A DNA stretch of 64,000 bases from Bacillota bacterium (lineage in GTDB: Bacteria > Bacillota > Dehalobacteriia > UBA4068), in NCBI GenBank assembly GCA_024679955.1, contig JAILCQ010000009.1, forward strand, positions 3,467 to 67,466, read 5' to 3'. Every line of letters begins with the position of its first letter. The stretch's first letter is position 1. Positions 24,911-61,921 of the stretch are shown here, in pieces. The position numbers and the translations under genes are program-made. Below the pieces are notes generated by a model. The model saw only the letters and a program-made list of their open reading frames with translations, was not told the origin of the DNA and did no database searches.

Positions 24911-24932
24911 AGTACGTAAACCGTTATTTTGC

Positions 24933-24969
24933 AAAAGACCGGTTCGATTTTTCCGAACCGGTCTTTTTG
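24933..24969 (+). terminator. Rho-independent terminator
   Basis: AAAAGACCGGTTCG-ATTTTTC-CGAACCGGTC followed by TTTTTG. Confidence 0.8.
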
Positions 24970-25167
24970 TATGGAGCAGGCGGCATGGCATTCTGCTGCC
25001 CGCTTTGCCGGCAAATAGGCCGCGAAAAGCCATGGGTTTTCTTAGCATAGCCGCCGTTTTTCTGTTTTATCTCCGGGCGATAAGCCGGTCAAGATATTTG
25101 TAGGATATATAAATAGGAAGGAATAATGATTCAAGATTGCTCCATATTTAGGGGTGGGTGACCCTCC

Positions 25168-25276
25168 GGTTGGATTTTTTTATGGCTGGGTGATTACAAG
25201 GTTGGTTTGTATCAGTTTGGATTATTTTAATTTTGGATTATTTATTAAAAAAACAGAAAATTGGTTGATTTTTCCA
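25168..25276. repeat. Five head-to-tail 15-16-nt degenerate repeats (consensus about GGTTGGATTATTTNA) plus a sixth copy overlapping the -35
   Basis: Units: 25168 ggttggatttttttat, 25184 ggctgggtgattacaa, 25200 ggttggtttgtatca, 25215 gtttggattattttaa, 25231 ttttggattatttatt, then 25261 ttggttgatttttcca. They are embedded in a conspicuously AT-rich stretch of a GC-rich genome. Confidence 0.7.
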
Positions 25277-25293
25277 TGAATCAAAAGTATACT
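25265..25293 (+). promoter_or_regulatory. Putative sigma-A promoter of the SLH/giant-protein genes (TTGATT-17-TATACT)
   Basis: TTGATT at 25265-25270, a 17-nt spacer, TATACT at 25288-25293, with a second TATACT at 25294-25299. This leaves a leader of about 105 nt to the ATG at 25403. Confidence 0.45.
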
Positions 25294-25402: not shown

Positions 25403-26353
25403 ATGAGAAAACGGGACAGAAAATCGTTTGTCAGGGATATAGCCGCGGTAGCGCTGGTTTTTGCCCTGGTATTCGCATTTTCCGTAACGGCTTTTGCTGC
25501 GGGAACCGTCCAATATACCGATATTGACGGCCACTGGGCAGAAGCGACAATCGACAGGGCTGCGGCGAACGGCCTTGACATGCTTACCGGCGACAAGTTC
25601 TATCCGAATGCAGCCATCACCAGAGAGGAATTTACGCATATGGTGAGTTGGGCTTTCGGTTTGGAAACCGCTGCCGATAAGGTGACCTTTAAGGATGTTC
25701 CTGCATCCGGTCTTTACTATGAGGATATCCTCAAAGGCGTTTATTCCGATATTATCCATGGTCGCAGCGATGATGCTTTCGATCCGAAGACGACCATCAC
25801 CCGCCAGGAAGCTTGCGTTATTTTCTACAACATGCTTCCGCTCTACGGCGTCCCGGCTACCGGCGCCATTGAAAGATTCAACGACTATGCGGATATCAGC
25901 TCCTGGGCTCTGAAAGAAACCGGCACCATCGCCAGCGCCGGCTATATCCAGGGTTATCCGGATAACACCGTTCGTCCGTTGCGTACCATCACTAAAGCGG
26001 AAGCTCTGGTCATGATCATGCGCATCGTTGACGCCAGCAAGATCGTTCATGGCGATTTCACCGTCAAAGACGGCGAAGTCTTCAAGGATACCATCTTCAC
26101 CGGTACCATCTATGTGCCCGCCGGCTACGAAGCCACCTTCGACAGTTGCTCCATCCTGGGCAAACTGGTCAGCGGCACCACCAAGGACAAAACGGAATGG
26201 GAACTGCCCCATGACACCAAAGTGGCCAACGTGGAATATCAGACTCCTTCCGGCAGCGGCGGATCTTCCGGCCATACGCCGACTCCCACTCCCACTCCCA
26301 CTCCCACGCCCACTCCTGAACCCGACGATGAGGATTTTAACGTCTGGTTCTAA
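25403..26353 (+). CDS. Secreted S-layer-homology (SLH) domain protein, 316 aa, with a C-terminal beta-rich domain, (TP)7 linker and acidic-aromatic tail
   Basis: AAAGGAGGG RBS. Signal peptide ...VFAFSVTAFAAG. Three SLH repeats: YTDIDGHWAEATIDRAAANGL..., FKDVPASGLYYEDILKG..., FNDYADISSWALKETGTIASAGYIQGYPDNT.... The protein ends TPTPTPTPTPTPTPEPDDEDFNVWF. Confidence 0.9.
   Translation: MRKRDRKSFVRDIAAVALVFALVFAFSVTAFAAGTVQYTDIDGHWAEATIDRAAANGLDMLTGDKFYPNAAITREEFTHMVSWAFGLETAADKVTFKDVPASGLYYEDILKGVYSDIIHGRSDDAFDPKTTITRQEACVIFYNMLPLYGVPATGAIERFNDYADISSWALKETGTIASAGYIQGYPDNTVRPLRTITKAEALVMIMRIVDASKIVHGDFTVKDGEVFKDTIFTGTIYVPAGYEATFDSCSILGKLVSGTTKDKTEWELPHDTKVANVEYQTPSGSGGSSGHTPTPTPTPTPTPTPEPDDEDFNVWF
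26276..26317 (+). repeat. In-frame (ACN CCN)7 microsatellite encoding a (Thr-Pro)7 linker
   Basis: acgccgactcccactcccactcccactcccacgcccactcct, with ACTCCC repeated in tandem. Confidence 0.8.
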
Positions 26354-26437
26354 ACCGATTCCCGTTGTTTCCTTTTGTTGATTTTCCTTCTAGGGAATAA
26401 TGCATAAAATGCAAAAAATAATAAAGGAGGTTTTGTG

Positions 26438-29400
26438 ATGAAGAAGTTCAACCGCGCATTGGTAATCTTACTGGTTTTTGCCTTAGCGTGCGTTGGCTTG
26501 GCCGCCATGGCTTTTGCAGCACCCGACACGGATGCAACGCCGTATGACGGTGAAGGCGCTGTCATCGTCAACTGGACCAAGCTTTCGAACGTACAAGATT
26601 ATCACGTGGATCTGGTGGTTGATAGTAAAACGATCGATATATCACCGGCAGATTTCTCGTCCAGAGTCAACAGCCTGGACATTACCCAGTATGTAAAAGA
26701 GAACGGCCCTGGCGTCTATACGGCGCTGGTTACCGCTCACCGTGGTAATTATGGCGATAAACATGCCAGCGATACCATTGTCATTAAGCAAATGGATCAG
26801 CCCCAAAACATCGCCTGGAATATCGACGCTGAAAAAGCCGTCGTTTCCTGGGACGCTGTGGAAGGCGCTACCCTCGGCTACAATGTCAAGGTCACCTTGA
26901 CCGATGCCGAAGGCAATGTGGTTGACGAGCAGATCTACGAAAAGGTCGACGCTACCTCTCAGGACGTCACCAAATTCGTCGCCCCATATGCCGCCAATGA
27001 AGATCCGCTGACGCTCTCTGCCGCCGTGCAGGCTGTCGGCGAATTGACCTGGAAATATGTGGGCGGCCAAAAGACCGGCTATCTGAACAGTGATTATACC
27101 GATCCTGTGGATGCCGATCAATTGGTCGGTTCTTTGCCCAAAGGCTACATCACCAACGACAAAGTCGAAGTCGTCAACCCCGGTCAACTGACTGTGGATT
27201 ACGAACTGGTTCCTGTGGCCGACGGTATCGACTACACCTACGTTGACAAACTGAACCTCAAACTTGAGGGCAGCAGCATCAGTCTGAACAAGAATGTTAC
27301 CGAGAATATCGGCGCGACCGGCACCATCGACGTGACCGAAATCAACGCCAATCCGGACACCTACGACTGGACGGTCAGCCTGACCCCCAAATATGTGGTC
27401 AACGCCGCTACGGTAAACGATAAGACCCAAGACGGTGAAGACGGCCAGGTCGTGTTTGAAAAATTTGACCTGCCGAAACCCGTTCTGACCGTAGCTGACG
27501 ACGCCAGCTTGCTCAGTTGGCCCGCCGTCAATGCCGATCCGGAAGTGGTGGACGATCCCACTTTGTTCGACGACCCCGAAAGATATGAAGTCTATGTCAA
27601 AGGCCCGGCCGGCACTTGGCAGCTGTTTACCGGCGGTGCCGACACCAAAGTGGTCTATGACGACGCGACCGGTGAAATGTCCGTCGATATCAGCGACGCC
27701 ATCGATGAAGGCGAGACCAAGGAATTCAAAGTCAAGGTCCTCAACCGCATCAGCAGCGTTGCCGATACCCTGGATCTGAGATTCACCGACAACTCCGAAG
27801 CCGTGGTGGAAGTCTACAAGACCATCCGTCCCACCAATGTGGCTTTCGATGTGGAAACCTACGCGTTTGACAATCCTCCCGCCGAAGACGTGGAAGATTT
27901 GGTTTACCTTACCTGGACCCTGCCGGATACCACCGGTATCGACCATTATCTGGTAACCATCTATGAAGACGGTGAAGCAGCGGCCACCTTCGAGACGGAA
28001 GACGCCAATACCAATTCCATCGACGTCACCTCCGCCATCGATAACGTGGAAGTCCATACGTACACCGCCGACGTGGTTTCCATCGGCAAACATGCCAATG
28101 ACGACTACAGTCACTTTGACGCCGATTCCGGCGCGGCCGCTACGGCTGAAGACGGCAGCATCCTCTCCGGTGCGGTAGCTTCCGCTGAGGAAGAAGCCGT
28201 TATCGAACAGCAAGATGATACGTTGGTGCTGGTGGTCAAACTGACCGATACCAATGACAACTTCGACAAAGTCGAATCTGTCTATGCCACCAACCTGAAA
28301 AACGGCAAAACCTCTTATGAAGGTCCCATCCAGGGCACGCTGAGCACCGAAACGGACAGCGAAACCGGCGACACCATCCACATCGCCACCTTCGATCTCG
28401 GCGAAGTCTATGAAGGACAGGATCATCTGAAACCCGGCGAATGGACCGCTGACATTACCGTCTATTCCTTCAACAACGGTCTCAACGCCGATACCACCGT
28501 CAACGTCTCCGCCACCTATGATCCGGAACAACTGGAAATCCGCGGCGAAGAACTGGTGGATGAAGAAGGCAATCCCACCGGCGAATATGGCGATCCTCTG
28601 GTCGTCGATCCGGAAAGCGGCGAAGTCTCCTGGCTGACCGCCTATGCTTACGACGATGAAACCGATGAAAAGATCGAGGATTCCTACTCCCCGGACAACT
28701 ACTACATGGTCAAGCTGGAATACTACAACGGTTCCAGCTGGAAGAGCATCAAGCTGCAGGGCGGCAACGATGAAGAATGGGAAAACATCGGCAATGTAAC
28801 CTCCTACGAGATCAATGATCCGGACGCTCCGGATGGCGTAGGCATGGTTCCCGGCCGTGTTTACCGCGTCGTCGTTCAGGCCTTCAGCGACAGACCGCTG
28901 GTCTATGCGGAAAGCGATGAAGAAAGCGCTTATCTGTGCAAATTCCCGGCCGTCATCGCTGACATCACCGCCGATGCGGATTATCCCGCCGGCGCGCTGA
29001 GCTGGGTCGGCTCTGACGACAGCTTCACCTATCCCGACGGTACGGAATATGAGATCAATGCCGGCGATTATACCGATACGGCTACCGAATCTCCCTATTC
29101 CCTCTATGAACTGTTGGAAGAATACGGTACCTATGACGCCAACGTCACCGTTCTGCCTATGGTGGTAGACGATGTGGCCGTGGGTCAGGAAAACGTTACC
29201 GTAAATTATGTGAAATCCGATGTTTCCAATGACGTGACCGCTTATCGCGGCGTGGTTCCGGCGGAAGACACCGAAGACGTCGAATTCCAACTGGAATCTG
29301 ACGGCAAGGTATCCTTGCTCTTCACGCTGCCCACCGCGGACGATTACACGGATGACTATGACAAGGCGATGGCCGACGCCATCGATACCGCCAATGTCAC

Positions 29401-32400
29401 CGTGAAACTGTTCACCGACAACGGCACGCTGTTGGGTAAATACGATTCTGTTTACGATGACGCTACCGGCGTCAGCACCGCCGACGTCACCGTGGCCAAT
29501 GAGGTCTCCACCGCTCCCAACCTGACGGAAGTCATTGATCCCGGTGAAAAGATCTTCGTCGCCATCTGCGTCGGTTCCGTTACCGAATACGTAGACGGCT
29601 ATGCGGATTTTGAAGTCCTGGAAGGCGATAAGAGCAAAGAGACTCTGGCCATTTACCTGTCCAGCGACGTGGAAGACGACGCCGTTAAGGTCGCCGAGCT
29701 GACTCTGCCCGAGCGCGAGAAACTGAACGTCACCGCGGAGATCAACACCGAGGACGGCACCGTCGTGATCAACGACGATGAGGTCCAGGAAGACGCACAG
29801 CCCACCTACACGGTGGATATCGCGGTCAAGAACGCGGACGGCAGCACCACCAAGACCACCTATGACGGCGTGGATCCCGATACCCCGCTGGATACCTCCA
29901 GTGTGATCAAACCCGGTACGGAAGCCACCGTCACCGTCACCGCTTCTGACGACAGCGGCAAATATGCCGACGCCGTGACCGAGATGAAGGCTTACAAGCT
30001 GACCGATCCCAGCGACGCCGCTGTGGATAACGGCACCGGCGAGCTGACCTTCACCAGCGACACCACCGAGTATGCATACACCAACGAGGTCACCTTCGCT
30101 CCCGAAGGCAAGGCTACTTATGATGAAGAAAGCGGCGTCATCACCTTCGATCTCACCGAAGACGCTGCCAACGTCACCACCACCGTGGCCTCCATCGGCG
30201 GTTATGATGAAACCAACGAGATCTTCGTAATCGACGCGGACAACACCACCAGTGTTGACACCATGGCCGGCCTGGTGCCTGAACTGACCTTCGTGGACAA
30301 TGTGTTCCATAACAATGACGAAGGCAAACAGTACACCGAAGCCACCATCGATACCAACGATGACCTCTATGACGCCATCGATTGGGAAAACACCACGGTC
30401 ACTGCGAAGATCGGCGGCACCACCTACAGCGGCAAAGCCGAAGTCACCAACGTGGCTGATGACGGCACCGCTACCGTGACGCTGACCATGGACCAGACCC
30501 TGGACGAAGGCGAATACGAAGTCACCGTCACCCCGGCCATCAAAGCTGACTACGCTGCCGTAGCCGCTGCCGAAGATTTGGAAGGTACCGTTACCTACAC
30601 CAAGCAGCAGCTGCAAATCGTGGATTTGGCTGTGACCGATTTTGCTACCGGCGAAGCGGCTTGGTCCGTCGATCCGGAAGGCAAAGCTACCAATTACAAA
30701 GTCACCGTTTCCAAGCCCTCCAGCGATCCTAGCGGTTGGACCACTTATTGGGAAGGCACCGTAGACGAGCCCACCTTCGACCTGACTGAAAAAGGCTATG
30801 AATATGAAGCGGGTATCGAATATCAGCTGAAAGTTCAGGCCATCAGCGGGGATCCGGACTATGCCGACAGTGGTGAAGATGACGCCATCATCCTCATTTA
30901 CCGTCTGACCGATCCGGCCATCACCAAGATCGCCAAGAGCAACGGCGCTGTAACGTATACCCACGACACGACCTATGCGCATGTCGATACGTTCACTACC
31001 AGCGATGCCAACGCTAATGTTTCCGTGGATGGAGAAGGTAAAGCTACCGCTACCTTTGATCTGACCGTGGATCCGCAGGACGTCACCGTCACCCTGACCT
31101 GCACCGGTCAGTATGACTCCGACGCCAGCGTCTATGTACTGGATGCCGTGACGCCGGCCGACTATGTCGTGACCGCCGGTCTGGATCCGCTTCTGTCCGA
31201 TCCGACCCTCAGCATCGATCCCGCCACCGGCAATCAGATCCTGATGCTGAAGATAGACGAGAACAACCCGCTGTATGCTGCCGACTGGGATAACACCCCC
31301 AACGATTGGGCCAATATGTCCGTTACCTTGAGCGGCGGCGGCAAAGAAGTGACCGTTGACAACATTACCCATAAGGATAATGTCAGAACGAACCCCGGTT
31401 ACCTGAAAGTCAATTTTGGCACATCTCTGGAGAACGGCGTGGATTACACCATCACCGTGGATGACGCCATCCGGAGTAAATTCCAGGCTGTGGCCGGCCC
31501 CCGGGACTACGATGGTCCTTACACCATTGTGGACGAAAATCAGGATCCGATCACGGTCAGCCTGACCGCCAATCAGCTGGTCGTCAGCAATCTTCATGTT
31601 GAAGATTTTGCTACCGGCAAAGCTGCCTGGGACGTAGAAGAAAACTCTGACAAAGTCGCCAATTACAAAGTCACCGTTTCCAAACCTTCCAGCGATCCTA
31701 GCGGTTGGACTACTTATTGGGAAGGCACCGTAGACGAGATGGCCTTCGACCTGACTGAAAAAGGTTATGAATATGAAGCCGGAACCGAGTACCAGCTGAA
31801 AGTTCAGGCCATCAGCGGCGACCTCGGCTATGACGACAGTGGTGAAGATGACGCCATCATCTTCATCTATCGTCTGACCGATCCTGAAATCACCAGGATA
31901 CTGAACAGCGGCGTGATCGAATATACCCATGACACGACCTACGATCATGTGGATACGTTCTCTGCCGACAACAATGCTACCGTTGACGATAGCACGGCTA
32001 CCGTCACCTTTGATCTGACCGCGGATCCTCCGCAGGAAGTCACCGTTACCTTGGCCTGCACCGGTAAGGAAATCACCGCCAATGAACGCTATGTTCTGGA
32101 CGCGGAGAATGTAGCCACCGCTACCAAAACCGCCGGTCTGGCGCCTATCTTCTCTGACGCGACGCTCACCATTGATGAAAATGGCGATCAGATCCTGACC
32201 TTGAAGATAGACATGAACAACCCGCTGTATGGCAAAAAATATTCCCTCTATCCCAGCATGTGGAAAGATGTGAAGATCACTGCCAGCAACAGCACGGAAG
32301 GCGACGTTACCGTTCCGATCACCTCCGCGAACAATGTGGATTATGCGACCGGCACGATAACCATCAACTTCAAGAATAAGTTGGTTGAAGATACCGAGTA

Positions 32401-34372
32401 TGATATCCTGGTTCAGGATGTCATCAAAGACAGCTACAGCCATATCGCCGGCGCCCGTCCGGAATACTCCGCAGGCACGGTCAACGTAGCCGCTCCCGTC
32501 ACCCCTCCGGATGCGCCCGTTTTGAGCGTTGACCCCGAAGAGGGCGTGATTTCCTGGGGCGACGGCGGCAGCTTGAGCCCTGAAAAGAAGATCATGACCA
32601 GAGCTCTCCTCCGTGATGACGCGGCCAGCGAAATCACCTATCACGTAGTTGTATCCCAGTACGATGATTCGATCTGGGAAGATGAAAATTATCAAGGCAC
32701 CTCCTTCACCCCCAATTTTGGGGGTGGGGAGGGCGAACCCGTCCTCAATGTCGGTGAAGTCTACACCGTGACCATTCATGCTGTGAAAGACGGCGTAGAG
32801 AGCGAAGGCACTTCTGTGGATATCTACAAACAGGAAGCCCCCGTTGCCGCCACTCTGGCTTTCGAGAAGAATGAAAACGGCGCTTACACCGGCAACTACA
32901 CGGCTGAAGGCGGCGTGGAAGGCGCTACCCTTACCGCCGATGTTTTCATCGGCCAAGAAGAAGTGACCAAAGAAGTGGAAGCTCCCTCTTATGTAAACGA
33001 TGACATTATCGCGGGTGAGCTCAATACGGTCACCATCCAAAACGCCAAATTCTCCGGCTTCCAAGGCGCCACAGATAATGTATATTACTTCGCCTCCGAA
33101 GCGGCGGAGCGTGATCTGGTTTCCGATTTCAAAGTTGGTAAGCTGCCGGCGCTCACCGTTGTCGATCCGACTGCGGACGACGGCTTGACCACGGAAGATA
33201 TCGCCAATGAAGACGGCACCGGCACGGTGGAATTCACCTTCACGCCGGATGAGAAAGCCGCTATAGAAAAAGCCTTGCTGGCTTTGGGTGAGGCTGATCC
33301 CATTGAAGGCAATATCGTCGAAGGTAAGGCTACCTTCACCATCCCCGCCGAGACTATGGCAGCCATCGCCGCTAACGTGGAATACACTGCTACCCTGGTT
33401 GCCGCCAATCCGGCGGTCAATGCGGACAGCACTGCCGAAGGCACCATCGCCTATGTGGAACCTGCGCCTGCGAAGGAACCCATCCCCGCGGTGGATCCTC
33501 TGTATTACGGCGTGTTTGCGGACAGAGCCAACACCTTCAACACCGCCAATAACGGCGGCGCCACCCTGTACTTCAAGGAAGTCGAATTGGCCAAGCTGAA
33601 AAAGAACGGCGGCTATGTAGTCACCATCGCAGACAGCTCCACCAATGACAGCTATACCTTCTCCAACGATCAGCTGAACGGCCGCAGCCAGCTGCCTGCG
33701 GCTTGCGTAACCGACGACTACTTTGTTTCCGTGAAGCGCATTGCCATCAACAGAGCCGTCAATGAGGAAAAGATCACTGCTAATCCGGCCAACTGGACCG
33801 TGACCATCACCGACTATCCGCTGGATGAAGAGACCTACATGGAAAATACCGCTGTTTTCACGCTTGACGGTACCGGCGACGGCAGCGAAGAGTCTCCGGC
33901 GGGCTTCGCCGAAGGCCTGATCGAAGCCATCCCGGTGGAAACCATCCTGGCCAATGCCAAAGCTTTTGTGTATCCCGGCGATGACGGTACTTCCAATGCC
34001 TATAAATATATTGGTATCTTCACCGTTTCCGGCAGCACCGTCACTTACAGCTGCAGTTATGCGGCTGCTATAGAGTCTGAACATCAGGGTCTTGCAGCTG
34101 CGGCCATCGCCGATATGGCCCGTTTCCTGGGCGCTATCCATCGCGGCAACGAAGATGGTACTGTGAACGCCATCACCTATAACGGTGTGGACTACACCTG
34201 GGATACCGCCAGCACGCTGAAGGGCTCCAAGTGGACCGATGCGGACAGCAATACGCTGGTCAGCGTACTTACTGCTGATCTTGGTGCCCAGATCACCGGA
34301 CTTGGTGAATATACCGTTTCCTTCCAGATCGACGGCAAAGATGTGAACGTAACTATCGCTTTGACGAATTAG
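26438..34372 (+). CDS. Giant secreted hyper-acidic repeat protein, 2,644 aa (Fn3/Ig-like modules, no recognisable wall anchor)
   Basis: AAAGGAGG RBS 7 nt before the ATG at 26438; the ORF track starts at GTG 26435. Signal peptide MKKFNRALVILLVFALACVGLAAMAFA|AP. Many ~100-aa modules carry SW.AV..A..Y.V-type signatures. The protein is rich in D/E/T/V and contains large internal duplications. A strong terminator follows. Confidence 0.9.
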   Translation: MKKFNRALVILLVFALACVGLAAMAFAAPDTDATPYDGEGAVIVNWTKLSNVQDYHVDLVVDSKTIDISPADFSSRVNSLDITQYVKENGPGVYTALVTAHRGNYGDKHASDTIVIKQMDQPQNIAWNIDAEKAVVSWDAVEGATLGYNVKVTLTDAEGNVVDEQIYEKVDATSQDVTKFVAPYAANEDPLTLSAAVQAVGELTWKYVGGQKTGYLNSDYTDPVDADQLVGSLPKGYITNDKVEVVNPGQLTVDYELVPVADGIDYTYVDKLNLKLEGSSISLNKNVTENIGATGTIDVTEINANPDTYDWTVSLTPKYVVNAATVNDKTQDGEDGQVVFEKFDLPKPVLTVADDASLLSWPAVNADPEVVDDPTLFDDPERYEVYVKGPAGTWQLFTGGADTKVVYDDATGEMSVDISDAIDEGETKEFKVKVLNRISSVADTLDLRFTDNSEAVVEVYKTIRPTNVAFDVETYAFDNPPAEDVEDLVYLTWTLPDTTGIDHYLVTIYEDGEAAATFETEDANTNSIDVTSAIDNVEVHTYTADVVSIGKHANDDYSHFDADSGAAATAEDGSILSGAVASAEEEAVIEQQDDTLVLVVKLTDTNDNFDKVESVYATNLKNGKTSYEGPIQGTLSTETDSETGDTIHIATFDLGEVYEGQDHLKPGEWTADITVYSFNNGLNADTTVNVSATYDPEQLEIRGEELVDEEGNPTGEYGDPLVVDPESGEVSWLTAYAYDDETDEKIEDSYSPDNYYMVKLEYYNGSSWKSIKLQGGNDEEWENIGNVTSYEINDPDAPDGVGMVPGRVYRVVVQAFSDRPLVYAESDEESAYLCKFPAVIADITADADYPAGALSWVGSDDSFTYPDGTEYEINAGDYTDTATESPYSLYELLEEYGTYDANVTVLPMVVDDVAVGQENVTVNYVKSDVSNDVTAYRGVVPAEDTEDVEFQLESDGKVSLLFTLPTADDYTDDYDKAMADAIDTANVTVKLFTDNGTLLGKYDSVYDDATGVSTADVTVANEVSTAPNLTEVIDPGEKIFVAICVGSVTEYVDGYADFEVLEGDKSKETLAIYLSSDVEDDAVKVAELTLPEREKLNVTAEINTEDGTVVINDDEVQEDAQPTYTVDIAVKNADGSTTKTTYDGVDPDTPLDTSSVIKPGTEATVTVTASDDSGKYADAVTEMKAYKLTDPSDAAVDNGTGELTFTSDTTEYAYTNEVTFAPEGKATYDEESGVITFDLTEDAANVTTTVASIGGYDETNEIFVIDADNTTSVDTMAGLVPELTFVDNVFHNNDEGKQYTEATIDTNDDLYDAIDWENTTVTAKIGGTTYSGKAEVTNVADDGTATVTLTMDQTLDEGEYEVTVTPAIKADYAAVAAAEDLEGTVTYTKQQLQIVDLAVTDFATGEAAWSVDPEGKATNYKVTVSKPSSDPSGWTTYWEGTVDEPTFDLTEKGYEYEAGIEYQLKVQAISGDPDYADSGEDDAIILIYRLTDPAITKIAKSNGAVTYTHDTTYAHVDTFTTSDANANVSVDGEGKATATFDLTVDPQDVTVTLTCTGQYDSDASVYVLDAVTPADYVVTAGLDPLLSDPTLSIDPATGNQILMLKIDENNPLYAADWDNTPNDWANMSVTLSGGGKEVTVDNITHKDNVRTNPGYLKVNFGTSLENGVDYTITVDDAIRSKFQAVAGPRDYDGPYTIVDENQDPITVSLTANQLVVSNLHVEDFATGKAAWDVEENSDKVANYKVTVSKPSSDPSGWTTYWEGTVDEMAFDLTEKGYEYEAGTEYQLKVQAISGDLGYDDSGEDDAIIFIYRLTDPEITRILNSGVIEYTHDTTYDHVDTFSADNNATVDDSTATVTFDLTADPPQEVTVTLACTGKEITANERYVLDAENVATATKTAGLAPIFSDATLTIDENGDQILTLKIDMNNPLYGKKYSLYPSMWKDVKITASNSTEGDVTVPITSANNVDYATGTITINFKNKLVEDTEYDILVQDVIKDSYSHIAGARPEYSAGTVNVAAPVTPPDAPVLSVDPEEGVISWGDGGSLSPEKKIMTRALLRDDAASEITYHVVVSQYDDSIWEDENYQGTSFTPNFGGGEGEPVLNVGEVYTVTIHAVKDGVESEGTSVDIYKQEAPVAATLAFEKNENGAYTGNYTAEGGVEGATLTADVFIGQEEVTKEVEAPSYVNDDIIAGELNTVTIQNAKFSGFQGATDNVYYFASEAAERDLVSDFKVGKLPALTVVDPTADDGLTTEDIANEDGTGTVEFTFTPDEKAAIEKALLALGEADPIEGNIVEGKATFTIPAETMAAIAANVEYTATLVAANPAVNADSTAEGTIAYVEPAPAKEPIPAVDPLYYGVFADRANTFNTANNGGATLYFKEVELAKLKKNGGYVVTIADSSTNDSYTFSNDQLNGRSQLPAACVTDDYFVSVKRIAINRAVNEEKITANPANWTVTITDYPLDEETYMENTAVFTLDGTGDGSEESPAGFAEGLIEAIPVETILANAKAFVYPGDDGTSNAYKYIGIFTVSGSTVTYSCSYAAAIESEHQGLAAAAIADMARFLGAIHRGNEDGTVNAITYNGVDYTWDTASTLKGSKWTDADSNTLVSVLTADLGAQITGLGEYTVSFQIDGKDVNVTIALTN
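30638..30915 (+). repeat. Near-identical core of an internal ~969-nt super-repeat, copy 1
   Basis: gattttgctaccggc...caattacaaagtcaccgtttccaa...cgtctgaccgatcc recurs 966-969 nt downstream, with roughly nine in ten positions identical by eye. It encodes ...NYKVTVSKPSSDPSGWTTYWEGTVDE..FDLTEKGYEYEAG.EYQLKVQAISGD.... Confidence 0.85.
31604..31884 (+). repeat. Near-identical core of an internal ~969-nt super-repeat, copy 2
   Basis: Matches 30638-30915 with one 3-nt indel. The flanking ~700 nt of each unit are also homologous at the protein level (YRLTDP.IT.I..., TFDLT.DP..VTVTL.CTG, ...ILMLKIDENNPLY / ILTLKIDMNNPLY). Confidence 0.85.
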
Positions 34373-34415: not shown

Positions 34416-34452
34416 AAAAACCCAGCGCGTCCCTGTGGCGCGCTGGGTTTTA
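34416..34452 (+). terminator. Rho-independent terminator after the giant gene
   Basis: AAAAACCCAGCGCG-loop-CGCGCTGGG followed by TTTT. Confidence 0.8.
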
Positions 34453-60646: not shown

Positions 60647-61921
60647 CTATCCGACGGCATTCTCGGTCTCCTGCAAGTCGGTGGGGATTTCCTGCGAATC
60701 GTCCCAATTGTCTATGACTTCTTCCTGGGGCGGTACCACGTTTTCCCCGTTTTCTTCACCGGTATCGCCGGTATCGATTTCTTCGCCGCCGTCGGGAACG
60801 GTGACTTCCGTGTCGCTTTCGTTGCTATCCGTATGCTGCCGGCGCGCGGTTTCTTCTTCTTCCACCTCATCGTCATCCGCCTGGGAGGGGATGGAATAGA
60901 CGCCGCTGCCTTCGTCGCCCGTCAAATGGAGATTGATATCTTCATTACCGGTGATTTCCACCAGCATGGAGCGGAGTTTATTGGGGGAGACCACCCAGAA
61001 GGAAATGTTCTGATTGCCGTAGGGGAGATATTTGCCCACGCCGGGGACCATATACGTTTGCAGATTATCCAGATCCATATTGGATAAAGCGGTGGCCATG
61101 GACAGGCATTCGCTTAAGCTGAAAGAGGTGGTGACATTATCCATGGCGATGGATACCAGCTGCGGGGTTTTCAACACATTGGACAGGGAGAACAGCTTAT
61201 CCGCCAACAGTTTGAGGAATTTCTGCTGCCGTTCGATACGGCCGATATCGGCGGTGGCCGTATCGCGATACCGGACATAGGCCAGGGCATCCACGCCGTC
61301 CAAGGTTTGCGAACCGGCCTTGAGGTCGATGTTTTCCCATTTTTTATACATATCCGTTTCCACATCGACTTCCACGCCGCCGATGGCGTCGATCAGGTCG
61401 GTGAATCCCTGGAAATCGATGAGCACATAGCCGTCTATTTCCACGCCGAGAAAGTCTTCAATGGTTTTCATTGTCAGATTAATGCCGCCATAAAAAAAAG
61501 AATGGTTTATTTTCGTTTTGGTACTGGTGCCGGGGATTTGCACATAGGTATCCCGGGGAATGGACAGCAGCTTGACGGATTTGTTGGTCATATCCAAAAA
61601 GGCCAGGATAATGGTATCCGTCCGTCCGGCGTTTTCGCCTTCCCGATTGTCAGCGCCTACCAGCAGGATGACTCTCGTGCCCTCCAGGCTGACGATATCC
61701 TCTCTGGGCGGGGCGCTGACGTTTTCGGCGGTGACCACTTCGCCTTCCAGTTTTTCCGCCGCCGCTACCGCGGAGACGAAGCCCAGATAAAAGAACCAGG
61801 CCAGAACAAACAGCACGATCAGGACAAAGCATATCCTTTGCGGCGTGGTCAAACGGAAAAACCAAGAACGTTTTTGATGGATGGTGGTACGATCCTGTTC
61901 CCAAAAAATATTTTCGCTCAT
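60647..61921 (-). CDS. LytR-CpsA-Psr (LCP) family cell-wall glycopolymer ligase with an acidic C-terminal tail
   Basis: 424 aa. N-terminal TM segment. LLVGADNREGENAGRTDTIILAFLD...LSIPRDTYV LCP core. About 90 aa of D/E-rich tail. Confidence 0.85.
   Translation of the reverse strand: MSENIFWEQDRTTIHQKRSWFFRLTTPQRICFVLIVLFVLAWFFYLGFVSAVAAAEKLEGEVVTAENVSAPPREDIVSLEGTRVILLVGADNREGENAGRTDTIILAFLDMTNKSVKLLSIPRDTYVQIPGTSTKTKINHSFFYGGINLTMKTIEDFLGVEIDGYVLIDFQGFTDLIDAIGGVEVDVETDMYKKWENIDLKAGSQTLDGVDALAYVRYRDTATADIGRIERQQKFLKLLADKLFSLSNVLKTPQLVSIAMDNVTTSFSLSECLSMATALSNMDLDNLQTYMVPGVGKYLPYGNQNISFWVVSPNKLRSMLVEITGNEDINLHLTGDEGSGVYSIPSQADDDEVEEEETARRQHTDSNESDTEVTVPDGGEEIDTGDTGEENGENVVPPQEEVIDNWDDSQEIPTDLQETENAVG

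Follow-up and report, generated by a model that had tools for sequence, protein, structure and literature searches.

The window, as we refer to the whole 64-kb stretch of DNA analysed here, carries two adjacent genes on its forward strand: gene 1 (25403..26353), which encodes an SLH anchor protein of 316 residues, and gene 2 (26438-34372, the ORF opening at 26435/26438), which encodes a secreted giant of 2,644 residues. Both had been placed at these positions by a preliminary description of this DNA, and the ORF listing and translations confirm them.

Gene 1 opens with a signal peptide (25403-25498, forward strand, with cleavage between AFA and A at residue 32), followed by three tandem SLH repeats (approximately 25508-26017). 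The repeats were recognised as three stretches by Pfam SLH (PF00395; E 4.6e-29), and a profile of gene 1 orthologues, searched against the PDB, matched the SLH trimer of B. anthracis Sap (3pyw, 6bt4; best E 2.7e-9). Three motifs of the TRAE type occur, namely TREE (R74), TRQE (R134) and TKAE (K198), and in the six orthologues compared both R74 and R134 are invariant. In solved SLH complexes the arginine of the TRAE motif contacts the pyruvate of the wall polymer (PMC6081394), and by analogy with the rest of the SLH family the product of gene 1 would be expected to bind such a polymer.

Beyond the repeats, gene 1 encodes a conserved domain of approximately 77 residues (residues ~206-282; 26018-26248, forward strand), a linker composed of a Gly/Ser stretch and (TP)7 (26249-26317, forward strand), and an acidic-aromatic tail, EPDDEDFNVWF (26318-26350, forward strand). 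Pfam searches found no family besides SLH in the protein, no cohesin module, and no match when residues 205-316 were searched alone. An AF2 model of the whole anchor, built with six orthologues, reached a pLDDT of only 41.6 and was too poor for a fold search. The layout proposed in the preliminary description stands as regards the signal peptide, the SLH repeats, the (TP)7 stretch and the acidic-aromatic end; the domain that follows the repeats appears beta-rich solely in that low-confidence model.

The start of gene 2 is most likely the ATG at 26438, 7 nt downstream of the RBS AAAGGAGG. A Sec signal peptide (residues 1-27, cleaved between AFA and A; 26438..26518, forward strand), apparent in the translation and conserved in orthologues, leads into a protein with three distinct regions. 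The conserved N-terminal half (residues 28-1099; 26519..29734, forward strand), delimited by the conservation profile and a module HMM, consists of diverged and for the most part unique beta modules, the fn3-like ones among them including residues 27-107, 119-202 and 475-551. It is succeeded by a variable array (residues ~1100-2500; 29735..33937, forward strand) in which self-comparison revealed about 4.5 copies of a super-repeat of ~315 residues, and by a unique C-terminal module (residues ~2500-2644, the last ~145 residues), which together with the stop codon occupies 33938..34372 of the forward strand. The description of the giant as a series of ~100-residue Fn3/Ig-like modules is accordingly right about the kind of module and too uniform about their arrangement. 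As had been claimed, the protein is acidic and poor in Lys and Arg (D+E 18.2%, K+R 5.4%, net charge -337); it is also rich in Thr, and its computed pI of ~4.05 is the floor of the routine used.

Assignment of the modules to the fn3 class relies on several searches of differing strength. Pfam fn3 passed narrowly on the giant, with 27.8 bits against a whole-protein cut-off of 25, and matches to Filamin and Big_5 stayed below threshold. Starting from residues 118-215, iteration of a module HMM over all giants gathered 46 modules. An alignment of 17 modules (A5) displays the fn3 signature, with an invariant Trp in strand B and a Tyr in strand C, and the profile made from it matched fn3 structures of fibronectin in the PDB (E 2.4e-7). 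Structure prediction for single modules had been among the checks suggested, and an AF2 model of module 119-215 based on A5 attained a pLDDT of 84.5. The consistent Foldseek matches of this model were fn3 domains (those of tissue factor, cytokine receptors, LAR and monobodies), although they were weak (TM 0.5-0.6, E >= 0.014).

The giant thus possesses the long stalk of tandem beta-sandwich (fn3/Ig-like) domains by which fibrillar adhesins are recognised. A cell anchor, in contrast, was not found on its own polypeptide and sits on the neighbouring gene product. Searches of the whole protein and of its segments gave no SLH repeat and no anchor domain of Pfam or NCBIfam; there is no LPXTG-type sortase signal, and the signal peptide is the sole hydrophobic 19-mer, leaving no second hydrophobic segment. 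Profile-HMM, motif and hydrophobicity searches hence agree with the earlier claim that the giant lacks an anchor. Dockerin was likewise absent at E <= 1 for the whole protein and at E <= 0.1 for its segments, and no Ca-loop motif was seen. NCBIfam and PDB sequence searches with the whole giant returned nothing. No non-stalk part of the protein gave a Pfam, NCBIfam or PDB match that would identify an adhesive (tip) domain, and the C-terminal module has no Pfam or PDB relative. Gene 2 is, on this evidence, an fn3-type stalk protein with neither a recognised adhesive domain nor an anchor. An antisense "shadow" ORF of 2,579 codons runs across the giant gene (window:26642-34381, reverse strand), as similar ORFs do in the related loci L014 and L016; rather than a gene, it is most likely a side effect of the giant's biased codon content.

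By their anatomy, genes 1 and 2 make up one transcription unit, with terminators on either flank, none between them, and an RBS for each. Upstream, the intrinsic terminator of an amidohydrolase gene (24930..24971, forward strand; -23.9 kcal/mol, z -6.5) contains a perfect 14-nt inverted repeat (24933-24946 / 24954-24967) followed by a T run. Downstream, a 15-bp stem and UUUU terminate the giant gene (34417..34451, forward strand; -29.7 kcal/mol, z -5.7). The insulation of the pair by strong terminators, noted in the preliminary description, is borne out by these values. The spacer of 84 nt (26354..26437, forward strand) contains the RBS AAAGGAGG (26423-26430) and neither a terminator nor any significant structure (fold z -0.3), again as described; in the orthologous spacers the RBS is the only conserved part.

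Ahead of gene 1, a consensus scan located a promoter-like site (TTGATT, 17 nt, TATACT; 25265..25293, forward strand), a consensus match only, which would give a 5' UTR of ~105 nt. The orthologues show partial conservation of a TTGAT...CATGAATCA block in their upstream regions. The leader had also been described as bearing repeats. These exist upstream of the promoter-like site (window:25147-25242), as the direct repeats GGTTGGATTT and TTTGGATTATTT, but they are imperfect (~70% identity), and we dropped them as a part of the system since the regions ahead of the orthologous operons do not share them. Rfam gave no match in the leader or elsewhere in the window.

Several other genes in the window touch on the cell envelope. 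A 497-residue membrane protein with an O-antigen ligase-like Wzy_C domain is encoded 2.2 kb downstream of the Thr-rich giant (window:36602-38095, forward strand). S-layer O-glycosyltransferases of some Bacillota carry a Wzy_C domain, and this protein might glycosylate the giant; the gene is not conserved as a neighbour in L001 or L007. At window:60647-62835 of the reverse strand, the gene for a LytR-CpsA-Psr (LCP) transferase (60647-61921), of an enzyme family that attaches wall polymers to peptidoglycan, adjoins a gene for a protein with a copper-amine-oxidase N domain; both are envelope genes and could be relevant to wall-polymer display. A csaB gene was not found among the scanned ORFs of the 64-kb window. 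Elsewhere, a low-complexity ORF of 944 residues, rich in Glu, Ala and Gln and with no Pfam match (window:6219-9053, forward strand), lies upstream of a radical-SAM gene and smc.

Relatives of the pair are few. The anchor has five close orthologue clusters, with 64-78% identity, and the giant just four other clusters among 5.8 billion proteins, with 40-48% identity. A scan of GTDB genomes found a single species representative, the sheep rumen MAG RGIG7041, and a scan of JGI metagenomes added one further locus. Close pairs are present in the window, L001 (the sheep rumen MAG), L006, L007, L019 and L020. The eight distinct giants (window, P0038/L007, P0039/L020, P0040/L001, P0041/L019, L006, L015 and L016) are all preceded by an anchor gene, which lies 51-81 nt upstream. 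On every sufficiently long contig an anchor is followed by a giant, so that co-occurrence is strict in both directions. The genes flanking the pair, on the other hand, are of at least three unrelated contexts, comprising an oxidoreductase and LysR in L001, a mur operon in L006, an aminotransferase and ADH in L007, and housekeeping genes in the window, and the pair therefore moves as a unit. In the rumen-MAG relatives a small SLH-only ORF of 145-147 residues is situated just upstream of the anchor gene (L001:4903-5340, L003:172-615, L005:197-640); the window lacks an equivalent ORF.

When the conserved domain of the anchor was used in an exhaustive HMMER search, it turned up only in the present anchor family, among whose more distant members are P0042 (58% identity) and P0043 (46%). 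The anchor P0042 (at L015) and a similar anchor at L016 are followed ~50 nt downstream by giants with a signal peptide. The L016 giant exceeds 3,272 residues, and the fragment available at L015 shares 30% identity with the N-terminus of the window giant (E 3e-19). Two other HMMER matches, P0046 and P0047, were rejected as noise; they are repeat proteins, one with a Rib domain, that share a short GT[IL]YVP[AS]GY-like stretch. Although orthologues exist, a word-indexed homology search found none with the alignment of the conserved domain (A4), which we take to reflect a limit of the tool and not biology.

Conservation is unevenly distributed over the pair. The anchor is far more conserved than the giant (64-78% against 40-48% identity). 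Conservation of the giant peaks at residues ~350-1300, with 50-67% identity per 50-residue window, and the C-terminal half differs among orthologues through low identity, indels, module shuffling and differing numbers of super-repeats. The unique C-terminal module occurs in three of five complete orthologous giants, and terminal modules in general are found in only some orthologues. The first ~150 residues of the mature giant have 30-44% identity, below that of residues 450-1200, and this weaker conservation of the N-terminus counts against a tight dock to a highly conserved partner. The sequence of the anchor tail is itself poorly conserved.

A sister clade offers a comparison with a fused state. 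In L014 the ORF P0043, comprising three SLH repeats, the conserved domain, a Gly linker and the first part of a module, overlaps an ORF of 2,666 residues that begins mid-module and has neither a signal peptide nor an RBS. A single fn3-like module spans the ORF junction, and the sequence rebuilt across it matches a complete module further downstream over the full length (E 9e-5). In the L014 giant, 13 modules are matched by the window module HMM, the best at E 8.5e-23. The two ORFs are separated by one frame shift (L014:1480-1510, CCT TGA / TTG ACA), which may stem from misassembly, mark a recent pseudogene or be programmed. In L018 the whole SLH-plus-giant protein of L014 is colinear with one long gene broken by several frameshifts, and one frame covers the whole region that corresponds to the L014 junction. 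The assemblies of L018 (9600-17850) and L017 are rich in errors, with a cation ATPase, the SLH-giant gene and others split into overlapping ORFs in different frames. In this clade, then, a single polypeptide combines the SLH part, the conserved domain and a giant belonging to the same module family. A point against this evidence is that the fused examples amount to one short-read contig with a frameshift (L014) and one error-rich assembly (L018).

The fused proteins provide Rosetta-stone evidence that the two proteins of the window work together. The functional coupling proposed in the preliminary description is strengthened by them, as well as by the retention of the pair in every relative found despite differing flanks; in the survey of relatives suggested at the same time, where missing co-occurrence would have spoken against the proposal, co-occurrence is complete and no giant is parted from its anchor. 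SLH proteins are usually fused to the part that they display, and the fused clade is the outgroup, so that a single fission, predating the separation of the two split clades, appears the simplest history, with the direction of change presumably from fused to split.

Comparison of the two states indicates what changed. In the fused proteins a Gly-rich linker joins the conserved domain to module 1. At the C-terminus of every split anchor, a P-rich linker leads into an acidic run and then a few aromatic or hydrophobic residues (for instance DEDFNVWF, DEDFNAWFE, DEDWDGGWGWPN, EPSVWFE, DEDLDFGWT and DDDVHIEFG), an ending that the fused proteins lack. The split giants, for their part, gained a signal peptide, and near the mature N-terminus they have in common a motif in which an aromatic residue is followed by D-G-E-G. 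The ~77-residue conserved domain occurs in fused and split proteins alike and is therefore not specific to docking, and no dedicated dock. The acidic-aromatic tail, found in the split anchors only, would be the better candidate for an interface, judging from this distribution.

Taken together, the locus looks like that of a surface fibre that lost its wall anchor to a separate gene through fission, in a Gram-positive, uncultured bacterium of the gut or rumen. We consider it probable (roughly 0.6) that the operon specifies a giant fibrillar surface protein of the SLH-anchored kind in a form split by gene fission, in which the SLH protein holds the separately secreted fibre non-covalently. Each product would be exported separately by Sec. 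The 316-residue protein would bind the secondary cell wall polymer linked to peptidoglycan by way of its SLH trimer, and would project the short conserved domain, the proline-rich linker and the acidic-aromatic C-terminal tail. The acidic fibre of 2,644 residues, an anchorless stalk built of fn3-like modules, would be held non-covalently on the anchor protein by its conserved N-terminal half, most likely via the tail. Its variable, module-shuffled C-terminal half would face outward as the interaction or antigenic end. Such an orientation is consistent with the conservation gradient and with the N-terminal position of SLH in the fused state, both of which fit a conserved stalk close to the wall and a fast-evolving distal end.

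As to how the fibre might be held, simple charge attraction is excluded because both partners are acidic, and the conserved anchor domain, being present in the fused proteins as well, need not be the interface. It is conceivable, if on balance doubtful, that fission created a docking pair independent of cohesin and dockerin, in which linker and tail act as a peptide tag captured by the conserved N-terminal fn3 modules of the giant, perhaps with the aid of Ca2+ or by beta-strand addition.

Other explanations of the pair have to be weighed against non-covalent docking. The one we regard as most credible, albeit unlikely, is that the two products are co-transcribed relics of the fission which no longer associate, the small SLH protein having a separate role in the wall and the giant being released to the medium or matrix, or else bound to the wall by an unrecognised domain of its own, for example through its C-terminal module or through Ca2+ bridges to anionic wall polymers. 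The only moderate conservation of the extreme N-terminus of the giant would be in keeping with a lost partnership, and the C-terminal ~145-residue module and the LYYGVF-type modules, having no known function, leave room for an attachment of this kind; no known anchor has been assigned to around half of the fibrillar-adhesin-like proteins surveyed (PMC8286594). Yet the split genes stay adjacent in different contexts even where identity between the conserved domains of the anchors has dropped to ~55-58%, the higher conservation of the anchor relative to the giant would be unexpected were it left with nothing to display, and the candidate C-terminal modules are missing from two of the five complete giants and so cannot constitute a general anchor.

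We deem it improbable that the giant is the lattice subunit of a true two-component S-layer, spaced from the wall by the SLH protein as Sulfolobus SlaA is by its SlaB stalk. Variation in length from 2,200 to over 3,270 residues and in the copy number of tandem beta-sandwiches gives the giants the look of a fibrillar stalk, not of a compact subunit; even close relatives differ strongly in the C-terminal half, and no similarity to any solved S-layer assembly domain emerged from a search of PDB sequences. These points outweigh, in our judgement, the very acidic, Thr-rich composition of the giant and the strong RBS, long leader and strong terminators of the operon, features that are typical of abundant S-layer genes. 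That the split is itself an artefact, a single SLH-giant gene having been disrupted, whether by erroneous sequencing or by a nonsense mutation that arose recently, is scarcely credible, even though genes 1 and 2 share a reading frame and L014 contains an artefact-like frameshift. Two in-frame TAA stops (26351, 26405) and the non-coding 84-nt spacer lie between the genes, the giant has an RBS of its own and a full signal peptide, and the same split, with spacer, RBS and signal peptide, recurs in all relatives of two clades from independent assemblies. The frame shared by the window genes appears to be coincidental, as the genes of L001 differ in frame. Fusion of the two window products by read-through or frameshifting was considered in addition, and is ruled out by the two stops, the internal signal peptide and the L001 frames.

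Docking of the giant on the SLH protein, were it to proceed through a peptide tag, would mean that some fibrillar adhesins which seem "anchorless" are anchored in trans by the product of a neighbouring gene. The family offers a concrete and testable explanation, an anchor supplied by the adjacent gene, for a part of the fibrillar-adhesin-like proteins in which no anchor is seen. The occurrence of fused and split states in one family also points to where a new dock would have had to evolve, namely in the sequences changed at fission: in the anchor its tail, and in the giant its signal peptide and N-terminus. As the hosts are uncultured Bacillota of the gut or rumen, the practical impact is modest unless the dock should prove to be a useful short-tag display system.

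The closest known counterparts are the SLH-anchored giants and fibrillar adhesins of Bacillota, which share with the pair three N-terminal SLH repeats, an acidic stalk of the fn3/Ig-like kind and export by Sec; among fibrillar-adhesin-like proteins, SLH is an acknowledged means of anchoring (PMC8286594). Where anchor and stalk are a single polypeptide, the architecture is exactly that of the fused proteins of L014 and L018. In the window, by contrast, they are two genes and two secreted proteins, of which the anchor has gained an acidic-aromatic tail and the stalk a signal peptide. The preliminary description had presented the division of anchoring and display between polypeptides as unusual. 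It is less without precedent than was supposed, since cellulosome scaffoldins, SlaA/SlaB and C. difficile SlpA also separate the two.

Among the anchoring scaffoldins of the cellulosome (C. thermocellum SdbA, OlpB and Orf2p with CipA), a small or medium-sized SLH protein docks a large anchorless scaffold non-covalently, and the genes are clustered. The likeness to our pair is in the SLH protein, its large anchorless partner and the clustered genes, with docking in the present case being presumed. However, the SLH protein described here has no cohesin and the giant no dockerin, the domain that follows the SLH repeats is only ~77 residues long, and there are no carbohydrate-active modules.

Anchoring and display are likewise divided between two adjacent genes in SlaA and SlaB of Sulfolobus. 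According to a review (PMC12175726), a surface layer made of two proteins leaves the exposed one free to evolve apart from a conserved anchor. The conserved anchor and fast-evolving giant reported here match this idea, and they illustrate the advantage proposed for such layers. The Sulfolobus system differs in being archaeal and in having a membrane helix, not SLH, as its anchor, and the giant of the window looks like a fibre and not like a lattice subunit. Homology to SlaA or SlaB was not detected, the PDB search with the giant being empty and the anchor profile matching SLH domains only.

A further parallel is found in Clostridioides difficile, where the wall-binding fragment of CwpV holds the displayed fragment non-covalently. 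The LMW and HMW fragments of C. difficile SlpA are related in the same manner, the wall-binding fragment holding the displayed one non-covalently (PMC12175726). In both of these proteins the two parts arise by proteolysis of one precursor and the anchor is CWB2, whereas the fibre and anchor of the window are the products of two genes and the anchor is SLH.
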